Shown here: positions 11,753 to 34,693 of the stretch, piece by piece | Layout of the letters: each line of letters opens with the position of its first letter | How positions within the stretch are numbered: the stretch's first letter is position 1 | DNA from: an uncultured Clostridia bacterium | Lineage (GTDB): Bacteria; Bacillota; Clostridia; Christensenellales; DTU072 | Direction: 5' to 3' | Assembly: GCA_944349735.1 (NCBI GenBank) | Contig: CALVNM010000003.1 | Coordinates: 1 to 59,809 of the forward strand | Length of the DNA: 59,809 bases | Made by a program: the position numbers and the translations under genes | Notes under the pieces: model-generated | What the model saw: the letters and a program-made list of their open reading frames with translations, nothing else | Told to the model about the DNA's origin: nothing | The model's database searches: none

Positions 11753-11761
11753 AAGAGATAG

Positions 11762-11792
11762 GCTCCCGCACAAACGGGAGCTTTTATTTTTT
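11762..11792 (+). terminator. Rho-independent terminator after the MBL-like gene
   Basis: GCTCCCG cacaaa CGGGAGC followed by TTTTATTTTTT. It abuts the stop codon of the convergent gene. Confidence 0.6.
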
Positions 11793-15144: not shown

Positions 15145-16470
15145 CTATTTTCCTACGCAGAATCTCGAGAATATTTCGTCCACCACGCTCTCCGCCACGT
15201 CCTCTCCGGTGAGAGAACAAAGCTCCGCCCACGCCGCCTTGACGTCTACGGCAAGACAGTCAAGCCCTGCCGCGCCGATTGCGCCGAGCGCGGAATCCAC
15301 GTGGTCCGCCGCGGCTTTCACCGCGAATATCTGTCTTTCTCTTGTTAAAATCGGCGTTTCCAGTCTCTTTTTAAGCTCCAGTTTGTCCGCTATCAAGGCG
15401 GTTAGCGCGTCGATATTCGCTCCCGTTTTCGCCTCGGTCACGATGTCCGCTTCGCGGGGATATTTCTCCGCGTCGCCTTTGTTAGCCACGCGAATATGCT
15501 TCTTGTGCCTGATCTTGGCGTACAGCGCGCGTTCCTCTTCGCTCTCGGGTACCGAGCAGTCCGTCACGAATATAACGAGATCCGCTCCTTCTATCGCGCG
15601 CTCCGCACGCGCGATACCTATGCGTTCCACTTCGTCGGATCCTTCGCGTATCCCCGCCGTGTCGGATACGTTTATCGTCACGCCTTCGAGTTCGAAGCTC
15701 TCGCGCAAAACGTCCCGCGTCGTTCCCGCAATGTCGGTCACTATCGCGCGGTCGTCCCGGAGAAGAGCGTTCATGAGACTCGATTTCCCTACGTTGGTAA
15801 GCCCAGCAAGCACGAGACTCAGCCCTTCTTTAAGCATGCGTCTGTCTTTGCTGCCCTCGTAAAGCCTCGTAAGTTCCGCTTTCGCTTCGGTGAGCGCGGC
15901 TTCTATGAGCGGCATATTGTCGTCGGTAAGCTCCTCGGGATAATCGAGAACGGCGTCGATATTCGCGGCGGCTTCGATAAGGAATTCCTTGACGCGTTCG
16001 ATGCCTTTGCTGACCTCTCCGCCCATCATGCGGTATGCCTGCATGGCTTCCGCTTCCGAGCCCGCCGAGATCATGTCTTCGATGCCTTCGGCTTCGGCGA
16101 GATCGAGTTTTCCGTTGAGATACGCCCTTTTAGTAAATTCGCCGGGAAGCGCTGGGCGCGCGCCGAGCGCGACCAGTCTTCTCAGAAGTCCGTCGAGCAC
16201 GACTTTGCCGCCGTGCAGATGGAATTCGACCACGTCTTCTCCGGTATATGATTTAGGCGCTTTGCAATACATGCAAAACGCCTTGTCCGCGAAATTTCCG
16301 GCATCCGCTTTGCCGAGATACATCCTGTAAGGTTCCGCGGTCTCCGCGCTCCAGCCCTTCGCGGCGAATACTTTAGCCGCGACGGAGAGCGCGTCTTCTC
16401 CGCTCAATCTCAGTATTCCGACAGCGGCTGTCCCCGCTGCGGTCGCCGGCGCCACGATCGTGTCTTTCAT
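15145..16470 (-). CDS. mnmE: tRNA modification GTPase MnmE (TrmE)
   Basis: G-domain GLTNVGKSSLMN, DTAG, and the C-terminal CVGK tetrapeptide. Confidence 0.95.
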   Translation of the reverse strand: MKDTIVAPATAAGTAAVGILRLSGEDALSVAAKVFAAKGWSAETAEPYRMYLGKADAGNFADKAFCMYCKAPKSYTGEDVVEFHLHGGKVVLDGLLRRLVALGARPALPGEFTKRAYLNGKLDLAEAEGIEDMISAGSEAEAMQAYRMMGGEVSKGIERVKEFLIEAAANIDAVLDYPEELTDDNMPLIEAALTEAKAELTRLYEGSKDRRMLKEGLSLVLAGLTNVGKSSLMNALLRDDRAIVTDIAGTTRDVLRESFELEGVTINVSDTAGIREGSDEVERIGIARAERAIEGADLVIFVTDCSVPESEEERALYAKIRHKKHIRVANKGDAEKYPREADIVTEAKTGANIDALTALIADKLELKKRLETPILTRERQIFAVKAAADHVDSALGAIGAAGLDCLAVDVKAAWAELCSLTGEDVAESVVDEIFSRFCVGK

Positions 16471-18683: not shown

Positions 18684-19014
18684 TTGCCTCGATGTGTCCC
18701 GCCCTGACCAGCAGAGAGCGGATGGCTTCGCCTATTTCCGCAAAAGACGCTTCGGCTATCGGGTTCCTTGCGACCACCACGTACGTGTATTCGCCGCGGA
18801 TGTCGGGGATAAAACGCGCGAAATTCTCGTATATCCTTCTTTTTGCCAAATTTCTTACGACGCTTTTGCCTACTTTTTTACTTACGCTCACGCCGACTTT
18901 GATACCTTTAGCGGGTACGAACTCGAGTACGAGAAGCGGATGAGCGTAAGACTGACCCTTGCGATAAACGTAGCCGAAACTTGCGTTCTTTTTGAGTCTG
19001 TAGGCTCTCTGCAT
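18676..19014 (-). CDS. rnpA: Ribonuclease P protein component
   Basis: 112 aa basic protein. RLKKNASF and VSVSKKVGKSVVRNLAKRR motifs. Located directly after rpmH. Confidence 0.9.
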   Translation of the reverse strand: MQRAYRLKKNASFGYVYRKGQSYAHPLLVLEFVPAKGIKVGVSVSKKVGKSVVRNLAKRRIYENFARFIPDIRGEYTYVVVARNPIAEASFAEIGEAIRSLLVRAGHIEANV

Positions 19015-19148
19015 TACGCGGAGATCACGGCTCTGCCCTTTCTTCTGCGGCGAGAAAGCACCTTTCTGCCGCCCTTAGTGGACATTCTCTGACGGAAACC
19101 GTGGACTTTGCTCTTTTGTCTTTTTTTGGGTTGATAAGTTCTTTTCAT
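19014..19148 (-). CDS. rpmH: 50S ribosomal protein L34 (not in the ORF track because it is under 60 aa)
   Basis: Manual translation gives [49 protein letters not shown] stop/start overlap with rnpA. SD GAGGAG upstream. Confidence 0.95.
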
Positions 19149-19346: not shown

Positions 19347-19387
19347 TGTGGACAACTCTGTGGAAAAGCGCTACTCATTGTGGATAA
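19347..19387 (-). promoter_or_regulatory. Three tandem same-orientation DnaA boxes
   Basis: TGTGGACAA (19347, 1 mismatch), TGTGGAAAA (19359, 1 mismatch), TGTGGATAA (19379, perfect reverse complement of TTATCCACA). Confidence 0.55.
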
Positions 19388-20938: not shown

Positions 20939-21084
20939 GCGTTGTCTTCTGCCTGCTCCCATAGAAGTATTCCCCGATTTACAAAATACGCCCGAATTCC
21001 TCAAGGCTACCGAAATAAATAATAACACATCGCGGTCAAAGTGTGTATAATATTTATATAATTTTCTCAAATCGGAGGTTTGCC

Positions 21085-22392
21085 GTGGATTATTTCGACG
21101 AAGCCGTCAATTGTCTTCGTGAGTTGATCGGGATCGATTCGGTACAGTCCGCTCCCGCAGCGGGCGCGCCTTTCGGCAAAGGCGTGAGAGAAGCGCTCGA
21201 CTATATGCTTAGCGTTATGGAAAAGGCGGGTTTCCGTACCTTCGTCAAAGACGGATACTACGGTTACGCCGAGATCGGCTCTGCCGATAAACCGCTTTTC
21301 GGGGTACTCAATCACCTTGACGTAGTGCCCGTAACCGAAGGATGGAGTCACGATCCTTTCGGCGGAGAGATCGACGGCGGCTGTATATGGGGAAGAGGCG
21401 CCGAGGACGACAAGGGTCCCGCGGTAGCTGCTTTTTTCGCTGCAAAAGAGCTGCTCGACGAAGGGCGCGTACCCAAAGTAAGGTTACGTTTCATACTCGG
21501 GACAAACGAGGAAAGCGGATGGAAATGCATGGATAAGTATAAAGCGAACGAGGAAATGCCCGAGACGGGATTTTCTCCCGACGCGGATTTCCCCGTAATC
21601 AACTGCGAAAAGGGCGTCGCATTCTACAACGTCCGTATGCCGCTTCCCGAAGGCATCGTATTCGTGACGAGCGGGACGCGCGCCAACATTGTGCCCGACT
21701 ACGCCGAAGCCTTGGTGAAAAGCTCCGGGTATACGACGTCCGCGGCCGAAAAAGCGGGCGCCGAATGTAGCGCTTCGGACGGCATGACCAAAATAGTCAC
21801 TCGCGGAGTTAGCGCACACGGAAGTTCGCCCCGATCCGGAGTCAACGCGCTCGTAGGTCTGTTGACAGCGCTCGGCGCGGTAAATCCGGACATAAAAAAG
21901 CTTGCCGACGCGCTCGGAAAAAGCGACGGATCCGGCTCGGGTCTTGCCTGTTCCGACAAGGAATCGGGAGCGCTCACGCTGAATGCGGGAGCCGCGCGCA
22001 CCGTAAACGGCGTGCTTTCGCTGGATCTAGATATACGTCATCCCGTCACGGTGAAGCGCGACGACGTCACCGCAAAACTCGCGGCGGCGTTGCCGTATGC
22101 GGAAGTGTCGCTCGTATCATACCACGATCCTCTGTTCGTTCCCAAAGATCATCCCCTAGTCCGCGGTCTTCTCGAAGCGTACAGAAAAGTAACGGGAGAT
22201 AAGGACGCCGAACCTATATCGATAGGCGGCGCGACATACGCGAGAGTTCTTCCGGTAGGCGTCGGATTCGGTCCCGTATTCCCGGGAGAAAAATCGTATA
22301 TACACATGCGGGACGAGCGTCTCCCGCTGGAAAGCTTCCGCAAAATGAAAGCGGTCTATAAAGAAGCGCTGTCTTTACTTTGCTTCGAGTAA
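21085..22392 (+). CDS. M20-family dipeptidase (PepV/Sapep-like)
   Basis: HLDVVPV...GWSHDPFGG...GRGAEDDKGP motifs. GTG start at 21085 preceded by GGAGG. Confidence 0.85.
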   Translation: MDYFDEAVNCLRELIGIDSVQSAPAAGAPFGKGVREALDYMLSVMEKAGFRTFVKDGYYGYAEIGSADKPLFGVLNHLDVVPVTEGWSHDPFGGEIDGGCIWGRGAEDDKGPAVAAFFAAKELLDEGRVPKVRLRFILGTNEESGWKCMDKYKANEEMPETGFSPDADFPVINCEKGVAFYNVRMPLPEGIVFVTSGTRANIVPDYAEALVKSSGYTTSAAEKAGAECSASDGMTKIVTRGVSAHGSSPRSGVNALVGLLTALGAVNPDIKKLADALGKSDGSGSGLACSDKESGALTLNAGAARTVNGVLSLDLDIRHPVTVKRDDVTAKLAAALPYAEVSLVSYHDPLFVPKDHPLVRGLLEAYRKVTGDKDAEPISIGGATYARVLPVGVGFGPVFPGEKSYIHMRDERLPLESFRKMKAVYKEALSLLCFE

Positions 22393-22415
22393 GCGACAGA
22401 ATAACTTAAAAAATT

Positions 22416-22440
22416 AACCGCCCTCCGGGGCGGTTTTAAT
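22416..22440 (+). terminator. Rho-independent terminator after the dipeptidase gene
   Basis: AACCGCCC tccg GGGCGGTT followed by TTAAT. Confidence 0.6.
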
Positions 22441-22755
22441 TACGAATACCCATAACGGACGATTGCGTACGGAAAGGAGAACCTTACGTTTTCAATTACG
22501 TTAAGCCGGTTTGCCGTCTGTCCTTATGCCGATACGGCATTACTCCCGGGAATTTCGCGCGTAGAGCGAGACCGGGGGCAAATCTACGTAAAAATCACGA
22601 GAAAACGGCTTTAAACATTGCATTTTCAGATCATTTAAAGATGTCCTATAAATCGTACTTTTATGCGATTTTGTATCAATCATCACGAATAATACCGATT
22701 TTTCAAAAACGTCGAAATTAGGCTTCAAATTGCGGCATTTTTCAAGTAAAAATTA

Positions 22756-22771
22756 TGTTCCACGTGGAACA
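22756..22771. promoter_or_regulatory. parS-like ParB-binding palindrome (site 1)
   Basis: TGTTCCACGTGGAACA is a perfect 16-bp palindrome with 1 mismatch to TGTTNCACGTGAAACA. Confidence 0.75.
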
Positions 22772-22966
22772 CTTATGTGCTTTAAATATTCGGACGAAGT
22801 TTCCCGAGGCAGTGCTTTGACCCGTAAATGAGCTGAATTATGGCTGTTTTCGTGCAAATTCATGCATTTTCAGGCACTTTTTTAAACGCAGATTTTTCGG
22901 GAGATATATGAGAAACATTCTATGAAAATCTTACCCTTTATCCCTGTTTTTTCGGCGCTTTTCCGA

Positions 22967-22982
22967 TGTTTCATATGGAACA
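22967..22982. promoter_or_regulatory. Degenerate parS-like site (site 2)
   Basis: TGTTTCATATGGAACA. The arms are conserved, but the central CACGTG is replaced by CATATG. Confidence 0.4.
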
Positions 22983-23183
22983 CGGCTCGACGCTTGTTCC
23001 GCATATTTCTTTCGCGCCGGATTTCTCTACTGTCATTCAAGCGCAAACATACAGGAAGCTATCCCTGTCCCGAATCGGGTTGATCGTTTCTTGCTCCGAC
23101 TCTCTTACGCTCCGATCTCTTCTCACGGCTCTATATATAAGATCTAACACTTTGCGGGTCTCTCCGTACGCGTGCGCGAGGCG

Positions 23184-23192
23184 TTATCCACA
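23184..23192 (+). promoter_or_regulatory. Perfect DnaA box
   Basis: TTATCCACA. Confidence 0.55.
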
Positions 23193-23313
23193 AGTTTCGG
23201 TGTTCCGCGTGTTTACATTCCTTTTTGTTTATAAATGATAATATATTCTCTTTTAAGTGTAATATTTTAACGTTTTTCTCCGTTTTATGCGTCTTTTCTT
23301 AACAATATTTTGT

Positions 23314-23329
23314 TGTTTCACGTGAAACA
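23314..23329. promoter_or_regulatory. parS site (site 3), perfect consensus
   Basis: TGTTTCACGTGAAACA. Confidence 0.85.
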
Positions 23330-23331
23330 AT

Positions 23332-23340
23332 TTATCCACA
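23332..23340 (+). promoter_or_regulatory. Perfect DnaA box, 2 bp from parS site 3
   Basis: TTATCCACA. Confidence 0.55.
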
Positions 23341-24382
23341 TTGTTTTATATCACTGCCGTTCTATGCCTTTTATCTCTTGTTATCGACTGTCTGAGGGCT
23401 AAATCATTGTACGTTCGGCGCATTGCTCGCAACGTAAGTGTATGCAAATATATTCACTTCCCCTATCCGTTCAGACTGAAAATATAATTAGCCTTTCTCT
23501 CTTTCCTTATCACGACGCACGCCGTTGATGATCGACACATCTTGCATGCCTTTATATCTTTGACGACCTATGATCCTTAAGCGAAGAAGCCGTTTACATG
23601 CCTCGAGCTGCTATTTGAATATTCAAATTTTTCCTTTTACATTGTTCGCCGCAGCCGCAGGTTATATTTACTTATATAAACATTTGACCTACGACATCAG
23701 CACTTACGGTAAAGCTTCAGCCTGTCCTTCCTGATGCGCAGTCAGTAGCGCTTGTTTATCCGGTTAACAATCAACAGGCGATCACGATAACGGCTTACAT
23801 ATAAGCCGACCTACTCTTCATTCCCCGATGTTCAGATCCGCCCTCTATCGGTTCGGTACGCGGTTATTTTCCGCATTATTTAGTGTGCATGCGCTTGCGC
23901 GCTCCGAGCTTTGTTTTCCTCCTCCGTCAGCCGACCACGGCGACGGCGAACATTCATGAATGTGCGCTACAATATAATAACTCAAAATCCCATGAGCAAT
24001 TATGCCGAGTTAAGTCGATAGCAAGTCACGGATTATCTATCGGTCGACGCCGAGTCCGTTCGTGCTTCTTACTGCGGTATCGGTCTAATGACTTCTCGAC
24101 AGACCGCGAGTATTACTTAATATGTCGGTTGAGCTTCTCAACTTATGAATCACAGCGGTACGAGAATATATAAAAACGCACGAAATCAAATACAGACCAT
24201 ACGTAATAAAGAATATCAGATCGGTTGTCAAGCATAGTACGCACCGGACATTGTCTCGGCATAAGCTAAGACCTATAGCTTATACATGGAAAGCAGCTGA
24301 AATTCTTATATAAAATCTGAAGATATTTCTATAAAAAGCAGCACCGTCCTTAGCAATTCCTCCGCGTACGCATGTAAACATT

Positions 24383-24391
24383 TTATCCACG
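24383..24391 (+). promoter_or_regulatory. DnaA box, 1 mismatch
   Basis: TTATCCACG. Confidence 0.35.
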
Positions 24392-24641
24392 GGATACAAC
24401 GTCAGAGCAAAACAACGTCTGAATACTCCCTGCATTGTGCGGCACTCTTTTATCATATATACCGGTTATAAAAGCATTCTTGCTTCTTATGTAGGCATGT
24501 AAAGTCCGAAGCCAGTATATACGCGTACCGATAGACATTATTTGTAAAGCTATATTATAGCAATTCTGCATATTTATATCAAATATGCTCTATATTATAA
24601 TAATTATGTATATATCTCATAATATATGTATAATTATACAT

Positions 24642-24657
24642 TGTTTCACGTGGAACA
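24642..24657. promoter_or_regulatory. parS site (site 4)
   Basis: TGTTTCACGTGGAACA (1 mismatch to consensus). Confidence 0.8.
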
Positions 24658-24707
24658 CTGCGACTTATATATCAAAACTATCAAATTCTGAAGATAAAAA
24701 TGACTGA

Positions 24708-24723
24708 TGTTTCACGTGGAACA
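24708..24723. promoter_or_regulatory. parS site (site 5)
   Basis: TGTTTCACGTGGAACA, 50 bp after site 4. Confidence 0.8.
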
Positions 24724-24990
24724 ATTATAATATAATCACAGAACTTGTATTTTACATTATAACAATAACGGCATAATAGTATTACTACCGTTATGATAAT
24801 AAAGAATCTGTACTCGGTTATAGATCTATACCATATGTGAAGAAAAATATAGATATACGGTTCATTTAAATAAACGCGTTATCCAATCAAAATAAGTAAA
24901 AACAACTAAAACTATATATCGTAGTCTCCATTATATTATAACACTTAAAAGTCTGACAAATTGATATGAAACACTATGTGAATTACTCAT

Positions 24991-25006
24991 TGTTTCACGT
25001 AAAACA
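24991..25006. promoter_or_regulatory. parS-like site (site 6)
   Basis: TGTTTCACGTAAAACA (1 mismatch in the core). Confidence 0.65.
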
Positions 25007-25440
25007 TCGCGTTTTTAACACTGTATGATTCATCTTAATATAAACGGTATGAAAGACGTACATAAATTTTTTTACCGGTTTTGTAATATGTGCCGAATCG
25101 TTAAACATAAACAGACTATCCGATATGCGGGTTATAAGCATATTATATTTATTTATCAACTATCCTACATATTTGATTTATTGTCTCATATAAATTAAAG
25201 TCTATACCGCATAATTAGATTGCGCGATTATATCTATACCTATTTCTATATCCATATAAAACATACAATAAATCTTGTCAGCTACTGTGATTAAACTATA
25301 GAATGATCGTCTGATAAGTATTAATATTTATCTGTAATTCTTTGTACGCTGTATTTATACTTAAAGAATATTTATCTATCAATATACATAAATTGAATTT
25401 ACACCCGTATATTATTGGCAACTAATAAAAATTTAACGAA

Positions 25441-25456
25441 TGTTTCACGTGAAACA
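25441..25456. promoter_or_regulatory. parS site (site 7), perfect consensus
   Basis: TGTTTCACGTGAAACA. Confidence 0.85.
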
Positions 25457-25657
25457 ATATAGTATTACCGGTATAATATATTAAATGAATGCTATTCTAT
25501 GATAACGTCTATACCTATAGCAAGCGTATAGACATATATAATATTATAATCGATTATAGCCGGCGACAGAAGCTGTTGAAATATTAAGAACTTTTACTTT
25601 ATAATACAATCGTTATTTTAAGTGTAGGATAAGTGAAAATTACAATTTCTGTTGCGC

Positions 25658-25673
25658 TGTTTCACGTGAAACA
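25658..25673. promoter_or_regulatory. parS site (site 8), perfect consensus
   Basis: TGTTTCACGTGAAACA. Confidence 0.85.
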
Positions 25674-25763
25674 TTTGGCGATTCTATGACGCAAGTAAAT
25701 TCACACCTTTATATCTTATAGATCAGATCTGTATACAGATATTCTGTTTACGCTGCTCAGCAT

Positions 25764-25779
25764 TGTTTCACGTGAAACA
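25764..25779. promoter_or_regulatory. parS site (site 9), perfect consensus
   Basis: TGTTTCACGTGAAACA. Confidence 0.85.
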
Positions 25780-26518
25780 AAAAACTATTTAGCTTATTTC
25801 TATGACTTATGAAATTATATTTATGACCAAATAATCTATTTACATTGTCAGATTACTTAATTATAGATTTATTTACCGTGACTTTATATTGAAATGATAT
25901 ATTAACTCTTTTCTGTTTAAATGTTTTGTAAAACGCATAACAATTTCTGCTATTACCATATAAATGATGTATGATATGCGGATAAATTATATTTTCTGAA
26001 TAAGATACGCTTATTGACCGTATTATCTTAGGCATACAAAATTAATTTGATTATAGCTCATTGACATCGGATTCATCGTTAACGCTTGTCGTAATATCTG
26101 AGTTCTATTACAAACTCACAGCATATCATACATATACAGTCTATGAACAGTTTTTCGACTATACGGGTATATTATTATAAACCGCTGCATGTTACGTGCT
26201 TTTTAGATTCAACAAATAAATATGATCTTACTTTATGCTTGTCCATATGTATTTATGCACATTATGTTTCATATATCGAATAAGTATATATGCCATATAC
26301 ATGCATATACATATTTTAGATATAGTATTTGCATATAAATTAGTGTCGTATATAATTGAGATCGTAAGAATAGGGTAATCGGAAAACATATTCCGGTAAT
26401 CGATACACTTATTTTGCTTTTATATAAACACTGTCTTATGTTATAAAACTTGAGACGACAGATCTATATCTGCTTATCCTGTATTTTTCTTCAGAAATAC
26501 GTTTTTTCCTATATTTTA

Positions 26519-26566
26519 TGTTGATAACTTGTGTTTATTGTGGATAACTCATAGGGTTTATCCACA
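26519..26566. promoter_or_regulatory. Cluster of three DnaA boxes downstream of dnaN
   Basis: TGTTGATAA (26519, 1 mismatch), TGTGGATAA (26539, perfect), TTATCCACA (26558, perfect, inverted relative to the previous box). Confidence 0.6.
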
Positions 26567-26874
26567 ATTATACTGCATTTATGTATTTTAAAAGAGAATT
26601 ATATTACTCTTTTAATTACCTTAATTTCGCTGTTTTTACAATAAAATATCTCCTCATTCCGATTTTATATATAATGCTTGCGGTCTTCCTTGTTTCGGAG
26701 CTTCATTATTGATCGTTTCTTTTTTATCCCGTATAATAGCGTTAAGTACGCCTACTTATAAGCAGTATTCTTTTCTTGTTCATTCGATATAACCTTTTAC
26801 ATCATTATGCGCCTATGCCGCGCTCGGTAAACCGATATTTTTCGTCATAATAAAAATATGATTTTCTGTTTTTT

Positions 26875-26904
26875 GCATAAAAAACCCGGCATTCTCTGCC
26901 GGGT
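26875..26904 (-). terminator. Rho-independent terminator downstream of dnaN
   Basis: Minus strand: ACCCGGCA gagaa TGCCGGGT followed by TTTTTTAT. Confidence 0.65.
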
Positions 26905-26924
26905 CTTTATTTATCTTTAATTTT

Positions 26925-28025
26925 TCAGCCTATCATTCTCAGCGGAAGGACCAGATATATATACTTTTCTCCTTCTACCGGCTTTATGACTGCGGGAGCG
27001 TTGGAACCGGTAAGATCTATTTTGATGAAATCTTCCTTTATCCTGTTGAACGCGTCGAACAGATACCTCGAATTGAAAGCTATCTCTATATCCTTACCAT
27101 CTTGCTTGGCGTCTACGGTCTCGCGTATCCTGCCTACTTCGGACGCGGAATTTATCTCTATTTTTCCGCCTGAGAACGTGAGTTTGAGATAATTTTTCTT
27201 ATTCTTCGCTACTATTGTCGCTCTGTCGAGTCCCGCTTCCAAAGCGTTCTTGTCGACCGTTATTTCGGTATTCTTGGTCTGAGGAAGTATCTTTTCGTAT
27301 TGGATAAAATCTCCTTCGAGAAGCCTCGTTATTATCTTCGTGTGTCCCATGTCGAACATCACGAAGTTTTTCTGAACGGCAACTTTTACTTTCTCGTCGT
27401 TATCGCCGAATACTTTGGTTATCTCGTTGAGCGTTTTTCCGAGCACGACGATACTCATGTCTCCGATAGAATTGAAAACTTCGCTTTTCGTGATGCCGAG
27501 TCTGTATCCGTCGAGTGCCGCACAGGTCATTTCTTCGCCTTTTACGGCTATCTGGCAGCCTTTGAGTATCGGTCTCGTATCTTCCTGTGAAACGCAGAAT
27601 ATGACGCCTTCTATGGCTTCCTTGAGGTCTCTTTCTCTTACCAGGAAGCTGTTTTCGTCGCTTACCGTTTTTATCTCGGGATAAGTATCGTCCTCCATGC
27701 ACTGGAATTCCGATTCGTTGCCTTTATATCTCACTACCAGAGAAGTGGAATATTTCTCGAGTTCTATTTCCTCTACTTCGACGAGCTTCTTGACAAATTC
27801 GGTAAATAGTTTACCGGTTACGACCGTTTCTCCTTCCATTTTTACGCTCGCCTTTATTCTTGTCTCTATGAAGAGATCGAGATCGGTTGCGGAAAGGGTC
27901 ACTTCATCTCCCGAGGCGCTCATTTTGACGCCTTCTAGAATAGGAATATTGGTCTTACCGGAGATCGCCTTGCTTACAGTGATCAACGCTTCAGATAACT
28001 CTGTGGAATTGGCGATGAATTTCAT
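26925..28025 (-). CDS. dnaN: DNA polymerase III beta sliding clamp
   Basis: 366 aa. MKFIANSTELSEAL... three-domain clamp. Located directly downstream of dnaA. Confidence 0.95.
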   Translation of the reverse strand: MKFIANSTELSEALITVSKAISGKTNIPILEGVKMSASGDEVTLSATDLDLFIETRIKASVKMEGETVVTGKLFTEFVKKLVEVEEIELEKYSTSLVVRYKGNESEFQCMEDDTYPEIKTVSDENSFLVRERDLKEAIEGVIFCVSQEDTRPILKGCQIAVKGEEMTCAALDGYRLGITKSEVFNSIGDMSIVVLGKTLNEITKVFGDNDEKVKVAVQKNFVMFDMGHTKIITRLLEGDFIQYEKILPQTKNTEITVDKNALEAGLDRATIVAKNKKNYLKLTFSGGKIEINSASEVGRIRETVDAKQDGKDIEIAFNSRYLFDAFNRIKEDFIKIDLTGSNAPAVIKPVEGEKYIYLVLPLRMIG

Positions 28026-28071: not shown

Positions 28072-28205
28072 TGTGGTTATGTGGATTACTTATCCGAAAC
28101 GGCGTCACCGATGCGAATAAAAGGCGAAACCGAGGGAATAAGAGGCATTTCGTATGGGAACGATGTTGATAAATGCGGTCGATATATGTTGATACGTTAT
28201 CCACA
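28072..28205. promoter_or_regulatory. DnaA-box cluster in the dnaA-dnaN intergenic region, next to an AT-rich tract (28033-28068)
   Basis: TGTGGTTAT (28072, 2 mismatches), TGTGGATTA (28080, 1 mismatch), TTATCCGAA (28090, 2 mismatches), TGTTGATAA (28164, 1 mismatch), TTATCCACA (28197, perfect). Confidence 0.55.
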
Positions 28206-29667: not shown

Positions 29668-29675
29668 ATGGAAAT

Positions 29676-29684
29676 ATTATATCA
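29676..29684 (-). promoter_or_regulatory. Candidate extended -10 element (TGaTATAAT) ending 8 nt before the dnaA ATG
   Basis: Minus strand reads ttaTGaTATAATatttccatATG. No Shine-Dalgarno sequence is visible upstream of dnaA. Confidence 0.35.
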
Positions 29685-29789
29685 TAAAGCTCTAAGGAAT
29701 ACAAGGAAAAAAGAGAGTATAAGAGTATCGGTAAAACTCGCGGCGCGCGCATGCGCCCGTGCAATTCGTCCGCGCCGGATAAAAGCGTA

Positions 29790-29818
29790 TTTACAATATT
29801 TACGCCGTGTGGTAAAAT
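29790..29818 (+). promoter_or_regulatory. Candidate promoter TTTACA-17-TAAAAT (with TGg extended -10) ending 6 nt before the ATG at 29825
   Basis: TTTACAatatttacgccgtgTGgTAAAATcggattATG. Confidence 0.4.
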
Positions 29819-29824
29819 CGGATT

Positions 29825-31534
29825 ATGGTAGATATAAAAAAGATAAAAAGAAAGCTCGTAAAAGCGGGATACCCTCTGATAGAAGCGAGCCTTAAGAACG
29901 GGAGCGTCGTCCTGAGCGGAGAACTGGAAGATTACGAAGGGATACTCGAATGCGGAACCATAGCGGTATGCAAAGAATCTCGCGGAGTCGTAAACGATAT
30001 AAGGCTGAAAGGATACGCGCCGGAGAAGATGAGAATATGTCCCGTCGAAGACAAAGCATACGACGGGGAATCGCCTGACGTACTAGTCATAGGCGGCGGA
30101 ATAGTTGGAGCCGCCATCGCAAGGGAACTGACAAAATACGCGCTCACCGTCACCGTTCTCGAGAAGGAATACGATATAGCGACCGGTCAATCGGCTCGAA
30201 ACGACGGAATGATACACGCCGGAATCGACCTTAAGCCGAGCAGTATAAAAGTAAAATATAACGCGCGCGGTAACGCGATGTATCCCCGGATAAGCAAGGA
30301 ACTCGACGTACCCATAGAGATGTGCGGGCAATGCGTGCTTTATACCAAGAGATGGCAGAAGCTGCTTTTCCCGTTCATCAAAGCGCGCGGAGCGAAAAAC
30401 AACATCCCGGTAGAGAAACTCGGCCCCGAAGAAGTTAAAAAATACGTCCCCGAACCCGGGATAAAATACGGAGGATTCATGTGTCCTTCTGCGGGTATCC
30501 TGAGTCCTTATCAGATGACGGTGGCTTTTATGGAAAACGCCGTAAATAACGGGGCAGTACTCCATACGGATACGGCGGTCACGGGAATAGATAACGACGG
30601 GGAGAAGATAACCGCCGTAAGGACGAACCGCGGTACATTTTATCCCAAAGCGGTGGTGAACGCGGCGGGCATATATTCCGACGTGATAGCGGAATGGGCG
30701 GGAGACAGGCATTTCACGATACATCCGAGGAGAGGAGTGGAAGCCGTTCTCGACAAGAAGGCGAAGAAAGCGACTTCCGCCGTCATCGGAAAATTCGTCA
30801 TAAAAAGCAGTACCGGCAAAGGGCATACCAAAGGCGGCGGCGTGATAGTCACCGTAGACGGGAATATTCTGCTCGGACCGAGCGCGAAAGAAACGCCCGA
30901 AAGAGAGAACGAAGCCACTGTGCCCGAGGAATTCGAGGAGATGATAGCAAAGCAGTTCAAGCTTGCGCCGAAGCTGAAGAGGTCTGATATAATCACATAT
31001 TTCGCGGGGACGAGAGCGGCTACTTACGAGGAAGAATTCGTAGTGGAAAAAAGCCCCGTCGTCAGGAACTTCGTACAGGCTGCGGGGATACAGTCTCCCG
31101 GCGTCACTGCGGCTCCCGCGATAGCGGAAGACGTGGGAAAATGGGTCGCGGAGATAGTGTTCGGCAGCGACGTAAAATATAATACAAATTTCGATCCGAT
31201 AAGAAAAAGAATCCCGAAACCTTCTGAAATGTTACCCGAAGAAAGGAAAAAACTTATTGCGGAAGATCCGGATTACGGCGTCGTGATATGTCGGTGCGAG
31301 GAAGTGACCAAAGGAGAGATCAAAGAGGCTCTCCGCCGTCCGGCGTCGGTACCCGCCGTCGACGCGGTGAAGAGAAGAGTACGCGCGGGAATGGGTCGTT
31401 GTCAGGGAGGATTCTGCAGTCCTCTTGTCATGAAGATAATATCCGAAGAGTGCGGAATACCTCTCGATAAAGTAAGGAAGAAAGGTGCCGGAAGCGAAAT
31501 AGCGTTCCGCTACACCAAAGGCGGAGACAGATGA
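29825..31534 (+). CDS. FAD-dependent oxidoreductase, GlpA/LhgO-like, with a C-terminal BFD-like [2Fe-2S] domain and a ~67-aa N-terminal extension
   Basis: DVLVIGGGIVGAAIARELTKY dinucleotide motif. CRCEEVT...GMGRCQGGFC BFD-like Cys pattern. Alternative internal start at MRICPVED. Confidence 0.8.
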   Translation: MVDIKKIKRKLVKAGYPLIEASLKNGSVVLSGELEDYEGILECGTIAVCKESRGVVNDIRLKGYAPEKMRICPVEDKAYDGESPDVLVIGGGIVGAAIARELTKYALTVTVLEKEYDIATGQSARNDGMIHAGIDLKPSSIKVKYNARGNAMYPRISKELDVPIEMCGQCVLYTKRWQKLLFPFIKARGAKNNIPVEKLGPEEVKKYVPEPGIKYGGFMCPSAGILSPYQMTVAFMENAVNNGAVLHTDTAVTGIDNDGEKITAVRTNRGTFYPKAVVNAAGIYSDVIAEWAGDRHFTIHPRRGVEAVLDKKAKKATSAVIGKFVIKSSTGKGHTKGGGVIVTVDGNILLGPSAKETPERENEATVPEEFEEMIAKQFKLAPKLKRSDIITYFAGTRAATYEEEFVVEKSPVVRNFVQAAGIQSPGVTAAPAIAEDVGKWVAEIVFGSDVKYNTNFDPIRKRIPKPSEMLPEERKKLIAEDPDYGVVICRCEEVTKGEIKEALRRPASVPAVDAVKRRVRAGMGRCQGGFCSPLVMKIISEECGIPLDKVRKKGAGSEIAFRYTKGGDR

Positions 31535-32775
31535 GATACGCGGCGATAGTGATAGGCGGCGGTCCCGCGGGTATGGCGGCGGCATGCGCCGTTAAGGAAA
31601 GCGAAAAGGTACTTATCATAGAGCGCGAAGCGCGGCTCGGAGGAATTCTCAAGCAATGCGTTCACGACGGATTCGGAGTGATACGTTTCGGCGAAAAGCT
31701 GTCGGGACCGGAATATGCGGACAGATTCATAGACGAGGTTTATTCCCGTAAAAACATAGACGTCAGGACGTTGACGTTCGTTACCGATATAGAAAAGCGC
31801 AACGGGTATTTCGTCGTGACCACCACGTCGGGCAAGGGAATAGTAAGTTACGAGGGAGAAAATCTCATACTTGCCAACGGCTGCAGGGAGCGTACGGCGC
31901 GGCAGGTGAATATACACGGCACGCGTCCCGCGGGGCTTATGACCGCCGGAACGGCGCAGAATCTCGTCAATCTCATGGGGATCATGCCCGCGAAAAGGTG
32001 CGTGATACTCGGATCGGGAGACATAGGTCTCATCATGGCGAGGAGGCTCACGCTCGAAGGCGCGGAAGTCGTGGGAGTGTACGAGGCTAAAGCTACTCCG
32101 AGCGGGCTTCAGCGCAATCTTCAGCAGTGCCTTTACGATTTCGGGATACCCGTCAGTCTCAAAAAAACGGTCACGCTCGTGCACGGGAGAGACAGAGTGG
32201 AAGGAGTTACTGTCTCCGACGTGGACGACGACATGCGCCCTATATCGGGTACAGAAGAATACATACCGTGCGACGCGCTGATAGTATCGGTCGGACTCAT
32301 TCCCGAGAATGAACTTGCCGAAAATCTCGGCGTTCCGATCGATCCGAGGACGAAGGGTCCCGTGGTGGACCAATATATGATGACTGCCGTGGACGGAGTA
32401 TATTCGGTCGGCAACGCTTTACACGTACACGATCTCGTTGACTATGTAAGCGAAGTCGCCGAGACCGCGGGAAAAGACGTAGGCAGACGTAAGTCGCGCG
32501 CGTCGATAGAGGTGACTCAGAAGGGGTTTGCATATCTCGTACCGCAGAGGATAGACGCCGCGAACGTAGAGAAAGAAACGACATTTTATTTCCGCGCTTC
32601 TCACGATACAGAGAGAGCCAAACTCACGGTAACGATCAACGGAAAAACCGCGGTAACGAAGAAGTATTCGATGCTGAAGCCGCCCGAAGCGGTGCGGGTG
32701 AAACTCGCTTTGCCCGTAAAAGCGGGAGACGACGTAAAATTCGTGCTGGAGGACGACGATGACGGAAACGTTTGA
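31531..32775 (+). CDS. NAD(P)/FAD-dependent (pyridine nucleotide-disulfide family) oxidoreductase
   Basis: AAIVIGGGPAGMAAA and VILGSGDIGLIMA double Rossmann motifs. ATGA overlap with the upstream gene. Confidence 0.8.
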   Translation: MRYAAIVIGGGPAGMAAACAVKESEKVLIIEREARLGGILKQCVHDGFGVIRFGEKLSGPEYADRFIDEVYSRKNIDVRTLTFVTDIEKRNGYFVVTTTSGKGIVSYEGENLILANGCRERTARQVNIHGTRPAGLMTAGTAQNLVNLMGIMPAKRCVILGSGDIGLIMARRLTLEGAEVVGVYEAKATPSGLQRNLQQCLYDFGIPVSLKKTVTLVHGRDRVEGVTVSDVDDDMRPISGTEEYIPCDALIVSVGLIPENELAENLGVPIDPRTKGPVVDQYMMTAVDGVYSVGNALHVHDLVDYVSEVAETAGKDVGRRKSRASIEVTQKGFAYLVPQRIDAANVEKETTFYFRASHDTERAKLTVTINGKTAVTKKYSMLKPPEAVRVKLALPVKAGDDVKFVLEDDDDGNV

Positions 32776-33133
32776 GATGATATGTATCGTATGCCCGCGC
32801 GGCTGCCGGCTCAAAGCGGAGAGGACTGCCGACGGTATCGCCGTAACCGGCAACAAGTGTCCGCGCGGAGCAAAATTCGCAGAGGAAGAGATCGTCGCGC
32901 CGAAAAGGAGCTTTACCGGTACGGTGCGCTCGGTGTTTCCCGAGATGCCCGTCGTTCCTGTGAGGACCGCGGGAGAAGTACCGAAGGATAAGGTAAAAGA
33001 GGTTGCGCTTCTTACCCGCGACGTTCTTCTTACGAGGGCGTACGGCGTGGGCGAAGTCGCCGTCGATAACGTATGCGGTACGGGAGTAGATCTCATCGTT
33101 ACCGCCGACATGCGTAAAGTGATCGGCAGTTAG
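32759..33133 (+). CDS. DUF1667 domain-containing protein
   Basis: 124 aa. CIVCPRGCRL...GNKCPRG Cys pattern typical of DUF1667. It sits as the third gene of the GlpA-like trio. Confidence 0.8.
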   Translation: MTETFEMICIVCPRGCRLKAERTADGIAVTGNKCPRGAKFAEEEIVAPKRSFTGTVRSVFPEMPVVPVRTAGEVPKDKVKEVALLTRDVLLTRAYGVGEVAVDNVCGTGVDLIVTADMRKVIGS

Positions 33134-33148
33134 CCGAACGGAGGAAGT

Positions 33149-34693
33149 ATGATGCCGATAGTACTCGCATTGGATTGCGGCACACAGTCTATACGGGCGA
33201 TGTTGTTCGACGCGGACGGCAATCTCGTCGACAAGGTAAAGGAAACGTATGAACCGTACTTCTCCGTCAAAGAGGGTTACTGCGAGCAGTACGTCGAACT
33301 TTACTGGGAAAAACTCTGTTCCGCCACCCGCAGGCTGAAAGCCAATAACAGAGGACTTTGGGCTGCCGTAAAAGCGGTTACGGTCACCACAATGCGCGAC
33401 GTAGGTATATGCGTAGATAAAGAGATGAAGCCTTTGAGACCTGCGGTGCTGTGGCTCGACAGAAGAGAAGCGGTCGTAAATTACTACAGCCTTCCGCTGA
33501 AATCGAGACTTGCTTTCGGCGTCGCGGGAATGAAGGAAACGGTCGAAAAAACGGTTGCGGAATGCAAGTGTCTCTGGATTCAGCAGAACGAACCCGAGAT
33601 CTGGAAAAACACCTATAAGTATCTTCAGTATTCCACTTATCTTACATACAGACTGTGCGGAGAGACGGTAGATTCCGTGGCTTCGATGATCGGGCATATA
33701 CCCTTCGACTACAAACACAAGAGGTGGATGGGAGAAAAGCATATACAGAAGCCGTGCTTCAGAGATTTCCCGAGCGACAAGCTGTTTCCGCTCGTGGAAC
33801 CGGGTACGGTGATGGGAAAGATCACCGCCGAATGCGCGCACGAGACCGGTATACCCGAGGGACTGCCGCTCATTGCTTCGGGTTCGGACAAAGGCTGCGA
33901 GACGCTCGGCACGGGAGCGGTCTACCGCGACACGGCGGCGATAAGCTTCGGAACGACCGCCACGATACAGCTTACGACGCGTAAGTATGTCGAACCCGAA
34001 AAATTCCTGCCCGCATATCCTGCGGTATATCCCGAGATGTACAATCCCGAGACCATAGTTTACAGGGGCTACTGGATGCTCACCTGGTTCGTCAACGAAT
34101 TCGTGAAGAGAGCGGGCGGCTCGACGAACGCGGAACACGACTTCGACAAGAAGTTGCCCGCGGTGCCTCCGGGCTGCGAAGGGCTTATCGTGGAGCCGTA
34201 CTGGTCTCCGTCCTTAAAGCGCACCGAAGCGTGCGGAGCGATGCTCGGATTCACCGAGAAACACACGATTTATCATATTTATCGCGCTATAATAGAAGGA
34301 GTCAATTTCGCGCTCATAGAAGGGCTTAAAGGCATGGAGAAAAGAGCGCATGCGCGCGTGATGAAACTCACGGTCTCGGGCGGCGGCGCGCAGTCCGACG
34401 AAGTGTGTCAGATAGCGGCGGACATGTTCGGACTGCCCGTTCAGCGCGTGCAGACGTACGAGACGAGCGGCCTGGGAGCGGCGATATGCGCGTTCGTGGG
34501 ACTCGGCGTCTATTCCGATTACGACGAAGCCATCCGCAAAATGGTGAAGGTGACGAGGGTCTTCAAGCCGGACAGGAACAATCACGCCAAATATGCCGTG
34601 TTATACAGGAAAGTTTACGAGCCTATTTACAGAAGGATAAAACCTGTCAATAAAACGATAAAAAAACTTAAAAAAGGAGATATTTATGTCTAA
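33149..34693 (+). CDS. FGGY-family carbohydrate kinase (glycerol/xylulose-kinase-like)
   Basis: N-terminal LALDCGTQSIRAMLFD and C-terminal VSGGGAQSDEVCQIAADMFG FGGY signatures. Confidence 0.85.
   Translation: MMPIVLALDCGTQSIRAMLFDADGNLVDKVKETYEPYFSVKEGYCEQYVELYWEKLCSATRRLKANNRGLWAAVKAVTVTTMRDVGICVDKEMKPLRPAVLWLDRREAVVNYYSLPLKSRLAFGVAGMKETVEKTVAECKCLWIQQNEPEIWKNTYKYLQYSTYLTYRLCGETVDSVASMIGHIPFDYKHKRWMGEKHIQKPCFRDFPSDKLFPLVEPGTVMGKITAECAHETGIPEGLPLIASGSDKGCETLGTGAVYRDTAAISFGTTATIQLTTRKYVEPEKFLPAYPAVYPEMYNPETIVYRGYWMLTWFVNEFVKRAGGSTNAEHDFDKKLPAVPPGCEGLIVEPYWSPSLKRTEACGAMLGFTEKHTIYHIYRAIIEGVNFALIEGLKGMEKRAHARVMKLTVSGGGAQSDEVCQIAADMFGLPVQRVQTYETSGLGAAICAFVGLGVYSDYDEAIRKMVKVTRVFKPDRNNHAKYAVLYRKVYEPIYRRIKPVNKTIKKLKKGDIYV

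Follow-up and report, generated by a model that had tools for sequence, protein, structure and literature searches.

What does a bacterial chromosome do with several kilobases of DNA that hold no credible gene, adjoin dnaN and carry nine palindromes of the parS type? This is the question raised by a locus of an uncultured Clostridia bacterium, which we analysed in a window (the whole stretch of DNA under study) that is one entire contig of 59,809 bp. Our answer, held with considerable confidence, is that the chromosome of this Clostridia lineage has its centromere here, in the form of nine canonical parS on which ParB (Spo0J) dimers would nucleate. The features on which the argument is built are collected in Table 1.

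Table 1. Features of the parS tract and its surroundings in the window, and their counterparts in relatives (positions for relatives refer to the locus named).
Feature	Position	Strand	Remarks
M20-family peptidase gene	21043-22392	+	Adjoins the parS end of the tract; kept clade-wide
Gene-free AT-rich tract	22393-26924		4,532 bp, from M20 peptidase stop to dnaN stop
Hairpin, likely terminator of peptidase gene	22416-22435	-	G+C-rich; directly past the peptidase stop; one tract border
parS-1	22756-22771		TGTTCCACGTGGAACA; perfect palindrome; "anchor" site closest to the peptidase gene
parS-2	22967-22982		TGTTTCATATGGAACA; degenerate CATATG core, 2 mismatches
Second small module, within the array	23184-23340	+	DnaA box 23184-23192, ATTCTCTTTTAA 23245-23256, parS-3, DnaA box 23332-23340
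parS-3	23314-23329		TGTTTCACGTGAAACA; perfect; 2 bp on, perfect DnaA box 23332-23340
parS-4	24642-24657		TGTTTCACGTGGAACA; kept in strain L032
parS-5	24708-24723		TGTTTCACGTGGAACA; 50 bp between parS-4 and parS-5
parS-6	24991-25006		TGTTTCACGTAAAACA; 1 mismatch
parS-7	25441-25456		TGTTTCACGTGAAACA; perfect; also in L006 and L032
parS-8	25658-25673		TGTTTCACGTGAAACA; perfect; also in L006 and L032
parS-9	25764-25779		TGTTTCACGTGAAACA; perfect; nearest site to the DnaA-box module (~740 bp); also in L006 and L032
Conserved oriC-type module	26519-26616	-	DnaA boxes 26519-26527, 26539-26547 and 26558-26566, preceded by inverted repeat
Inverted repeat of oriC-type module	26588-26616		AAAAGAG-N-CTCTTTT
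Hairpin, likely dnaN terminator	26884-26904	+	G+C-rich, T/A runs at flanks; other tract border
dnaN (DNA polymerase III beta clamp)	26925-28025	-
DnaA-box cluster, dnaA-dnaN spacer	28080-28205		Three boxes, at most 1 mismatch; cluster shared by relatives
dnaA	28282-29667	-
parS-1 counterpart, L002	16247
parS-1 counterpart, L029	8533
parS-1 counterpart and unit, L020	6182		Unit of 2.5 kb, 8 sites
parS-1 counterpart and unit, L028	15104		Unit of 1.55 kb, 5 sites
parS-1 counterpart and unit, L027	12207		Unit of 1.15 kb, 4 sites
Unit, L003/L010			0.31 kb, 2-3 degenerate sites

The chromosomal parS consensus, TGTTNCACGTGAAACA, derives from the Spo0J/parS system of B. subtilis, and the 16-bp inverted repeats of the tract fit it over the full 16-mer. 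The form TGTTNCACGTGNAACA is matched exactly at seven of the nine sites, with one mismatch at one of the others and two at the last. The first-pass annotation had listed these nine palindromes, and every one of them was recovered with its position and sequence unchanged. Dinucleotide shuffling of the whole window gave a mean of only 0.02 matches, compared to the nine observed. When the tract alone was shuffled, so that its own composition set the expectation, 0.000 matches were obtained at up to one mismatch, versus eight observed, and 0.023 at up to two mismatches, versus nine. Moreover, the other 55 kb of the window contain no match at up to two mismatches, in agreement with the earlier view that the motif is concentrated here, at least within this contig.

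The sites are spaced irregularly (211, 347, 1328, 66, 283, 450, 217 and 106 bp from one to the next), and repeat searches, including TRF, revealed neither a shared flanking repeat unit nor a periodicity among them: only the 16-mers recur. This was interpreted as meaning that each 16-mer is kept individually, rather than copied within a larger repeat. Two sites deserve comment. The core of parS-2 is degenerate, and this site may not bind ParB; since the same CATATG core is present at the orthologous position of the congeneric locus L002, the degeneracy is old. The mismatch in parS-6, on the other hand, is a strain polymorphism, the conspecific contig L032 having a perfect TGTTTCACGTGAAACA at that place.

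Palindromes of this kind could also be operators of another protein, for example a transcription factor whose target has CACGTG as its core, or Noc, KorB or another paralogue of ParB. Variation among relatives lends this some colour: L027 and L028 carry parS variants with a CACATG/CATGTG core and the outermost bases vary in L020, which indicates some drift in specificity. However, it is the full 16-mer, well beyond the core, that equals the chromosomal parS consensus at seven sites, and the tract holds no genes to be regulated. In addition, a location at the origin is a hallmark of chromosomal parS (PMC7333895), and Noc sites are distinct in sequence, the difference being due to specificity-switching mutations (PMC7383237). 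Operators of another protein are therefore a very improbable explanation.

The absence of genes, which had been claimed from the list of open reading frames, held up in every search that was applied. No credible gene was found between 22393 and 26924, where the longest ORF is of 96 aa and looks like junk; the tract ORFs gave nothing at threshold in Pfam (searched to E 0.1), a tRNA scan of the tract was empty, and no Rfam family reached its gathering threshold, the E-value threshold yielding only sub-threshold chance matches to STnc370, mir-7 and mir-466. The mir-7 match is formed by the parS-4 and parS-5 palindromes themselves. In the orthologous tract of L029, an independent gene caller placed a single ORF of 36 aa. 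A promoter/terminator scan of the tract returned 30 hits versus 23 ± 5 in shuffled sequences; as this is no excess, it provides no evidence of transcription units in the tract.

The tract also stands out by its composition, with 34.5% GC versus 53.9% in the remaining contig and a minimum of 27% in the 25-26 kb bin. It is not uniform, since the 1.3 kb without parS between 23330 and 24641 has 43-46% GC and a marked strand skew. Low GC content (34.5% against 54%), the lack of genes and a fast sequence turnover between species are what would be expected if the tract were decaying foreign DNA, a plasmid or phage remnant whose parS-like sites were relics or chance occurrences without present function. 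Yet distant blastn searches found no match in 72,556 plasmid or 50,697 phage records, and tblastx against the genes that relatives have between dnaN and the tract found no pseudogene remnant. Chance is further opposed by the tract-only shuffles, with their nearly zero sites, and relics are opposed by the comparison with relatives described below.

The relatives' set comprised 32 loci in all. The two congeneric lineages L002 and L029, whose DnaN proteins are 90% identical, possess syntenic tracts of 5.7 and 5.5 kb, respectively, with nine parS each. The window tract can be aligned with them only at the parS sites, at the DnaA-box module and over 320 bp beside the peptidase gene. L029 and L002 can be aligned to each other, and this made it possible to compare rates: the parS columns show 125 matches and 3 mismatches (2.3% divergence), whereas of the remaining tract columns 3935 match and 1218 do not (23.6% divergence), so that parS evolves about 10-fold more slowly than its surroundings (Fisher p = 3.4e-11). 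A NGTTCCACGTGGAACA site occupies the parS-1 position in every relative examined. In more distant relatives (DnaN identity 56-59%) the common unit consists of the DnaA-box module, an AT-rich spacer, a parS cluster and the M20 peptidase gene (Table 1); one of these loci, L010, was the only useful one added by a JGI metagenome scan with a DnaN alignment, and it belongs to the same species as L003. Array and DnaA-box module remain physically linked in all lineages, including L020 and L028, in which inserted genes separate dnaN from the tract. Overall, lineages with DnaN identities from 56 to 100% share the tract in synteny and by vertical inheritance. Turnover of sites is nevertheless visible, with one gain borne by a duplication, one site borne by an indel and one strain polymorphism, while the number of sites is nine in each of the three congeneric lineages.

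Whether relatives have a syntenic array had been left as a point to check; they do, with nine sites in L002 and L029 and clusters in four more distant lineages. The comparison shows that the parS sites are under strong purifying selection, in an array that is syntenic in relatives, and it supports the view that they are functional, evolutionarily conserved sites for ParB, a view that may be called well supported as judged from conservation. A foreign origin with loss of function is strongly disfavoured, given vertical inheritance and the slow parS columns, and we consider it most unlikely.

An assembly artefact, i.e. a chimeric join or a collapsed repeat in a metagenome-assembled contig, has an even smaller, practically negligible probability. 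Many contigs carrying this dnaN do stop at or inside the tract, which shows that it is hard to assemble. However, it recurs at 98-99% identity in assemblies made independently from other samples (L006 over 1.8 kb and L032 over 3.0 kb), and the contigs of L002 (140 kb) and L029 cross the equivalent tract into the same flanking genes.

The position of the array next to dnaN, as first annotated, is confirmed, dnaA following directly beyond it. The rpmH-rnpA-yidC-jag-mnmE-mnmG cluster lies on the opposite side of dnaA/dnaN from the tract. DnaA boxes (TTATCCACA) are frequent in the window (24 matches versus 7 expected), and clusters of them beside dnaA/dnaN, as expected of an oriC, are found at 26519-26566 and 28080-28205. 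The flanking DNA has 27-31% GC. The cumulative GC skew has its minimum at about 27-28 kb, a 60-kb contig giving a local view of the skew only. Origin proximity, which is characteristic of parS, is thus indicated by dnaN/dnaA, the DnaA-box clusters, the skew minimum and the rpmH-yidC-jag-mnmEG genes. In an alignment of six lineages, the oriC-type module proved to be the sole block of the AT-rich part that could be aligned clade-wide. Since each lineage's tract starts with this three-DnaA-box module, the array abuts a likely oriC component, and the tract lies beside the probable replication origin. The tract is, in fact, a combined oriC-type and parS island, the DnaA-box module having been overlooked in the first-pass annotation.

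A second, smaller association between the two kinds of sites exists within the array. The module around parS-3 is orthologous to L002 15645-15806, and its pairing of a parS with a DnaA box recurs in L002 (15645/15661) and L029; one parS has a DnaA box 2-7 bp away in three lineages. The ATTCTCTTTTAA motif of this module occurs twice in the window and twice in L002, in both cases close to DnaA boxes. It was considered as a separate binding site, but the statistics are weak, with 7 of 100 shuffles reaching two copies in the window, and the motif is recorded simply as an observation.

No gene for ParB, ParA or SMC, the proteins expected to act on the array, is present in the contig or in any of the 32 loci, and a search for contigs extending past its ends yielded no further sequence on the left and no record on the right. 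The earlier statement that the window contains no parA or parB was upheld, as neither ParB nor ParA domains were detected by Pfam in window ORFs of at least 120 aa and the ParB motifs GERRxRA and ENxQRxxL were absent from a six-frame scan of the window and of the relatives' loci then in the set. Over about 22 kb on the left of the array and about 33 kb on its right, there is no par gene. In Firmicutes, the usual arrangement is mnmG-rsmG-(noc)-soj-spo0J; it is absent here downstream of mnmG. We infer a cognate ParB solely because its site is conserved.

This lack of linked par genes is one reason to consider that the array mainly organises the origin and loads SMC, instead of serving ParA-driven segregation, and that it may also regulate DnaA-dependent initiation. 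As a variant of the main explanation, this proposal does not contradict it. Streptococcus pneumoniae and Staphylococcus aureus indeed have ParB-parS and SMC without ParA (reviewed in PMC7333895). As to initiation, the DnaA-box module is less than 1 kb away and would be engulfed by the ParB complex, through which the array may exert control; the linkage of array and module in every lineage, despite the insertions in L020 and L028, and the DnaA box 2-7 bp from one parS in three lineages point in the same direction. There is a precedent in Vibrio cholerae, where ParB2 spreads from parS into the origin of chromosome II and controls replication (PMC3688505). On the other hand, ParA of B. subtilis is reported to regulate initiation independently of parS location (PMC7614844). 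We regard a primarily SMC-loading or initiation-controlling role as possible, if on the unlikely side.

With the comparative conservation of the sites, the reading of the tract as a ParB loading array, or centromere, is well supported, and such an array is by far the best interpretation of the palindromes. This central proposal of the first-pass annotation is borne out by the canonical parS sequences, the proximity of the origin, the gene-free DNA, the purifying selection and the synteny. The centromere could work as follows. According to established ParB biochemistry, ParB dimers at parS would each take up CTP, turn into a closed clamp and move along the DNA nearby. With nine such loading points in 3 kb, a single, very dense partition complex would form; it would extend over the tract, the neighbouring DnaA-box module and both dnaN and dnaA, and would thereby mark the region of the origin for segregation and, probably, for the loading of SMC. 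The lack of genes may be tolerated, or even favoured as a transcription-free platform. Relaxed selection together with AT-biased mutation would also yield a gene-free, AT-rich tract. A single AT-rich island without genes, uniting the parS array and an oriC-type cluster of DnaA boxes, would be ancestral to a family-level clade. The island presumably lengthened, from about 0.3-1.5 kb holding 2-5 sites to the 4.5-5.7 kb and nine sites seen in this genus, sites being individually gained and lost while the total was held at nine.

One may go further and see in the tract a "regional centromere" that is dedicated to this role, evolvable and physically fused to the replication origin, the absence of genes being itself under selection. 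Here, the density of ParB-CTP clamps and of SMC loading would be incompatible with transcription units; within a single family, the island would have undergone a roughly 15-fold expansion (0.3 kb to 5.7 kb, 2-3 sites to 9); balanced gain and loss would hold the number of sites at nine; and, with parS and DnaA boxes so close together (2-7 bp at one conserved site, under 1 kb for the array as a whole), initiation would be directly coupled to segregation. We hold this extension of the centromere reading to be unlikely.

Bacterial centromeres are origin-proximal parS clusters whose sites vary in number and spacing, and what drives parS clustering and centromere expansion is a question posed in PMC7333895 and PMC5815017. 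The present locus adds a clean, well-conserved Firmicute example, unlinked to parAB, in which the array and a DnaA-box module share a gene-free AT-rich island. Within the clade, tracts of 0.3, 1.15, 1.55, 2.5, 4.5 and 5.5-5.7 kb, with 2-3, 4, 5, 8 and 9 sites, form a graded series that can be used for studying the expansion of a bacterial centromere; if the absence of genes were indeed selected, the clade would be a natural series for finding what drives parS clustering and that expansion. Experimental follow-up is limited, since the organisms are uncultured. In these gut Clostridia, the island is a useful landmark of the origin and a recurrent breakpoint in metagenome assemblies.

How does the array compare with known systems? 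Plasmid centromeres, such as sopC of F and parS of P1, are iterated repeats beside their own par operon. The tract resembles them in having multiple ParB-type sites in a short non-coding region near a replication origin, and it had been likened to a plasmid-style centromere. This part of the earlier description is not supported: the spacing is irregular (66-1328 bp), no tandem or regular repeat units are detected by TRF, the flanks are unrelated, no parAB operon is adjacent, there is no similarity to plasmid or phage DNA, and the sites have the chromosomal consensus. A plasmid-type iterated centromere was rejected on these grounds.

The B. subtilis system is close in several respects, namely an identical site consensus, membership of the Firmicutes/Bacillota, origin-proximal sites and, presumably, the ParB-CTP clamp and SMC loading function. 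However, the four strongest B. subtilis parS are separated by about 5, 13 and 39 kb (PMC5815017), with some parS located in genes, whereas here nine occupy 3 kb of dedicated non-coding DNA; and spo0J/soj are near oriC in B. subtilis but not within about 27-30 kb on either side of this array.

The density of sites, which had seemed exceptional, has precedents in three other chromosomes. Corynebacterium glutamicum has ten parS in 35 kb, nine of them intergenic (PMC7083940): the number of sites is similar, they are mostly intergenic and they lie on one side of oriC, but they are interspersed with genes at a roughly 10-fold lower density, 73 kb from oriC, and the ParB-dependent SMC loading that we infer here has been shown there. 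In Caulobacter crescentus, the five strongest parS fit into 5 kb, at a distance of about 8 kb from ori (PMC5815017). This is again a tight cluster of several sites near the origin, for which a higher local density of DNA-bound ParB has been proposed as the rationale; its parS, unlike those of the gene-free tract, are inside essential or high-fitness-cost genes (PMC5815017). The nearest parallel in density is Myxococcus xanthus, with 22-24 parS in about 3 kb, some 4 kb upstream of parAB and 30-35 kb from ori (PMC3899335, PMC3778016). Both are dense, origin-proximal arrays of canonical 16-bp parS spanning about 3 kb, made of individually recognisable palindromes with some variation in the outer bases, and the M. 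xanthus cluster acts as a single centromere, a likeness that we draw for the present tract from its sequence. The M. xanthus array is denser (22 versus 9 sites in 3 kb) and stands beside parAB, tens of kb from oriC, while the array described here has no par genes nearby, adjoins dnaN and is separated by under 1 kb from a DnaA-box module, its tract having a GC content 20 points lower than that of the genome. The locus offers a well-developed case of a bacterial centromere type that is already known; it is not a new kind and reveals no new mechanism.

The window is a whole metagenomic contig of an uncultured gut Clostridia bacterium; the named records nearest to it are 'uncultured Clostridia/Eubacteriales bacterium' MAGs and, with 56% identity in DnaN, 'Christensenella sp. 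UBA3944'. Its gene order (table below), a cumulative GC skew minimum at about 27-28 kb and the clusters of DnaA boxes (24 boxes at ≤1 mismatch, where 7 are expected) together indicate that the locus is the origin region. The rpmH gene retains its classical upstream DnaA-box cluster, and the spacer upstream of dnaA contains no DnaA box. The dnaA-dnaN pair lies 7.5 kb from rpmH, in the opposite orientation to that of the common rpmH, dnaA-dnaN arrangement, with the amidase, radC and M20 peptidase genes and a gene-free tract in between; this layout suggests that an ancient inversion took place at the origin. The genes that diverge from dnaA immediately upstream form an apparent glycerol-utilisation cluster (a GlpA-like FAD oxidoreductase with a BFD domain, a pyridine-nucleotide oxidoreductase, DUF1667, an FGGY kinase and an FAD-linked oxidase), a group rarely met right beside dnaA. 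No ParA, ParB or SMC domain was found in any ORF of the window and a six-frame ParB motif scan of it was equally negative, so that the first-pass annotation was right to report no parA or parB here.

Features of the window and, where named, of related dnaN loci
Feature	Position	Strand	Remark
ORF, 264 aa	3785-4579	-	no Pfam match at curated threshold
mnmG, mnmE, jag, yidC, rnpA, rpmH		-	first in gene order
ORF, 156 aa	18622-19092	+	no Pfam match at curated threshold
rpmH	19014-19148	-	
DnaA-box cluster	19347-19387		upstream of rpmH
Amidase		+	after rpmH, before tract
radC		-	after rpmH, before tract
M20 peptidase	21043-22392	+	after rpmH, before tract
Terminator-like G+C-rich hairpin	22416-22435		tract edge
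parS array, nine sites	22756-25779		inside tract
Degenerate parS	22967-22982		CATATG core
DnaA boxes	23184/23332		inside tract
Half-copy of inverted repeat	23245-23256		ATTCTCTTTTAA
parS/DnaA-box pair	23314-23340		2 bp apart
Segment without parS	23330-24641		inside array
DnaA boxes	26519-26566		inside tract
Inverted repeat	26588-26616		AAAAGAG/CTCTTTT
Terminator-like G+C-rich hairpin	26884-26904		tract edge
dnaN	26925-28025	-	other side of tract from peptidase
DnaA-box cluster	28080-28205		dnaA-dnaN spacer
dnaA	28282-29667	-	other side of tract from peptidase
dnaA upstream spacer	29668-29824		
Glycerol-utilisation-like cluster	29825-36461		
gyrB, gyrA and other genes		+	beyond dnaA
ORF, 745 aa	53993-56230	+	no Pfam match at curated threshold; largest unannotated gene of contig
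ORF, 259 aa	56282-57061	-	no Pfam match at curated threshold
L002 inverted repeat	11394-11425		AAAAGAG/CTCTTTT
L002 parS/DnaA-box pair	15645-15676		7 bp apart
L002 degenerate parS	~16051-16066		CATATG core, TGTTCCATATGGAACG
L029 parS/DnaA-box pair	4345-4376 of tract		7 bp apart
L003 split half-sites	3281-3304		TGTTTCAC-AAACCCC-GTGAAACA
L027 parS-like sites	11744-12222		mostly CACATG/CATGTG core
L028 parS-like sites	14254-15119		mostly CACATG/CATGTG core

The tract measures 4,532 bp from the peptidase stop to the dnaN stop; its GC content is 34.5% (minimum 27%, at 25-26 kb), that of the remaining contig 53.9%. Its description as non-coding holds: the longest ORF has 96 aa and none is protein-like, no Rfam family matches at gathering thresholds (below them, matches are at chance level), and neither a tRNA nor a pseudogene remnant of the genes that relatives carry nearby was detected. 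In the orthologous tract of L029, a congeneric locus, the sole call of an independent gene caller is a 36-aa ORF. Misassembly is ruled out, since two contigs of the same species match the tract at 98-99% identity, L006 over 1.8 kb and L032 over 3.0 kb. The tract is also a recurrent assembly breakpoint: among independent metagenome contigs with this dnaN or a related one, many stop at the tract or within it (L001, L006, L007, L008, L016/L017, L030, L031 and L032), probably as a result of low GC or low coverage.

The consensus TGTTNCACGTGAAACA, at ≤2 mismatches, has exactly nine matches in the 59,809 bp, all inside the tract; these are the nine parS sites of the first-pass annotation, with the same sequences and no addition. 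Whole-window dinucleotide-preserving shuffles give a mean of 0.02 matches. Because the sites sit in unusually AT-rich DNA, the test was redone on the tract alone, where 0.000 are expected at ≤1 mismatch (8 observed) and 0.023 at ≤2 mismatches (9 observed). A plasmid-style array had been proposed. The spacings, however, are uneven (211, 347, 1328, 66, 283, 450, 217 and 106 bp), the sequences on either side of each site differ from one site to the next, the 16-mers alone recurring, and the tract resembles no plasmid or phage record. The irregular spacing and unrelated flanks rule out a plasmid-type tandem iteron array, and a search of the tract for tandem arrays found none. Each of the nine sites is thus maintained individually.

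Two sites depart from the consensus in different ways. The site at 24991, TGTTTCACGTAAAACA, carries one mismatch where the conspecific L032 has a perfect site, and this mismatch is therefore a strain polymorphism. The degenerate site has a CATATG core in both the window and the congeneric L002, beside a conserved flank (AAAAAACAGGGA-AAAGG); this form is therefore old, and is possibly constrained for another reason. The 1.3-kb segment of the array that lacks parS has a higher GC content (43-46%), and searches for ORFs, Pfam and Rfam families and homologous sequence in it were negative; strand skew is marked at 23-24 kb (GC skew -0.18, AT skew -0.21).

A syntenic array was sought in relatives, over 10 kb on either side of dnaN, and found in both congeneric loci, L002 and L029, whose DnaN proteins are 90% identical to that of the window. 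Their contigs run from dnaA-dnaN through a gene-free tract (5,706 and 5,539 bp) into peptidase-radC-amidase, as in the window, and each tract contains nine parS. In L029, an additional site lies on a duplication of ~155 bp, and in L002 one lies inside an indel, the total still being nine in each case. The flanking genes of L002 have 76-78% DNA identity to those of the window, and the window tract can be aligned to L002 and L029 only at the parS sites, at a DnaA-box block of ~110 bp and over ~320 bp by the peptidase gene. Between L029 and L002 the whole tract can be aligned, and this pair was used to compare columns. Within parS, 125 columns match and 3 differ (2.3% divergence), two of the three falling at the degenerate fifth base, against 3935 matching and 1218 differing columns elsewhere (23.6%; Fisher p = 3.4e-11). 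The difference shows that the parS sites are under strong purifying selection within otherwise fast-evolving DNA. The gene-free, AT-rich state may keep transcription away from the platform on which ParB and SMC load, so that the two do not interfere, or the DNA around the selected 16-mers may be free of constraint and have become AT-rich by drift.

Beyond the genus, DnaN identity falls from 90% straight to 61%, which shows that the genus is isolated. Several lineages at 56-59% identity retain an AT-rich tract with a parS cluster beside the M20 peptidase gene: L020 (2.5 kb, GC 26% versus 41% in the flanks, 8 parS-like sites within 1 kb), L028 (1.55 kb, 26% versus 39%, 5 sites), L027 (1.15 kb, 24% versus 38%, 4 sites) and L003/L010, two loci of one species (0.31 kb, 29% versus 50%, 2-3 degenerate sites). 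Except in L003/L010, an 'anchor' parS, NGTTCCACGTGGAACA, is found at a distance of 31-545 bp from the peptidase stop. Other Clostridia loci retrieved with the same DnaN probe have 0 or 1 parS near dnaN. In L003, two perfect half-sites separated by 7 nt adjoin two degenerate full sites and look like a disrupted parS. In the lower-GC relatives L027 and L028, the core of most sites is CACATG/CATGTG (TGTTTCACATGAAACA), CACGTG being retained at the anchor site only; either an altered ParB specificity or CpG-type decay may be the cause.

The tract end opposite the peptidase opens, in these distant relatives other than L003, with a conserved module in which three DnaA boxes, TGTGGATAA, TTATCCACA and TTATC(A/C)ACA in that order, come after the inverted repeat AAAAGAG-N-CTCTTTT. 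No DnaA box was found in the L003 spacer. In L020 and L028 the module stays with the tract despite genes inserted between it and dnaN. Since relatives share the parS cluster and the module, the island is an ancestral unit in which an oriC-type DnaA-box cluster is joined to a cluster of parS sites, apparently expanded in the genus of the window to its largest known size. The inverted repeat (arms 9-10 nt apart, 20-25 nt from the first DnaA box) is kept in six lineages (the window, L002, L029, L020, L027 and L028; DnaN 56-100% identical) within otherwise unalignable AT-rich DNA, and could be a protein-binding site or an origin hairpin. Its half-copy lies near a second DnaA-box/parS module, in which a perfect DnaA box stands beside a perfect parS; the relative orientation of this pair is identical in the window, L002 and L029, and DnaA and ParB bound to it would nearly touch on the DNA.

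According to established ParB biology, ParB dimers would nucleate at each parS, bind CTP, close and slide. Spreading is reported to reach ~2 kb per site for Caulobacter ParB and ~10 kb for B. subtilis Spo0J (PMC5815017). With such distances, nine loading sites in 3 kb would give a single dense ParB complex, covering the tract, the DnaA-box module ~740 bp away, dnaN and dnaA. In other species, ParB is documented to load SMC at parS sites close to the origin (PMC7083940, PMC7333895), and the same is assumed here. The array is real and functional, and very probably an origin-adjacent parS centromere, at which ParB loading is predicted from what is known of ParB. It reveals no new mechanism; it is a well-developed case of a known centromere type, and the series of relatives behind it is of comparative interest.

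As a rule, parS sites cluster near the origin. The contrast drawn by the first-pass annotation with B. subtilis was fair; the unprecedented density that it implied does not hold, dense arrays being known elsewhere. In M. xanthus, 22 parS (24 with two outliers) are packed into 3 kb, in a cluster situated 30-35 kb from ori and ~4 kb upstream of parA (PMC3899335, PMC3778016), the five strongest sites of Caulobacter lie inside 5 kb (PMC5815017), and C. glutamicum has ten in 35 kb, 9/10 of them intergenic (PMC7083940). Most species have 1-4 parS, several 5-8 and a few at least 20, as Livny et al. (2007) are cited in PMC3899335. No equivalent description of a gene-free or AT-rich parS island was found in open-access full text. 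What distinguishes the present array is its setting: the sites have a gene-free island of 4.5 kb to themselves, with a GC content 20 points lower than that of the genome; this island is fused, next to dnaN, to a conserved DnaA-box module, with no linked parAB in the window, and with relatives that form a graded series of island sizes and parS numbers.
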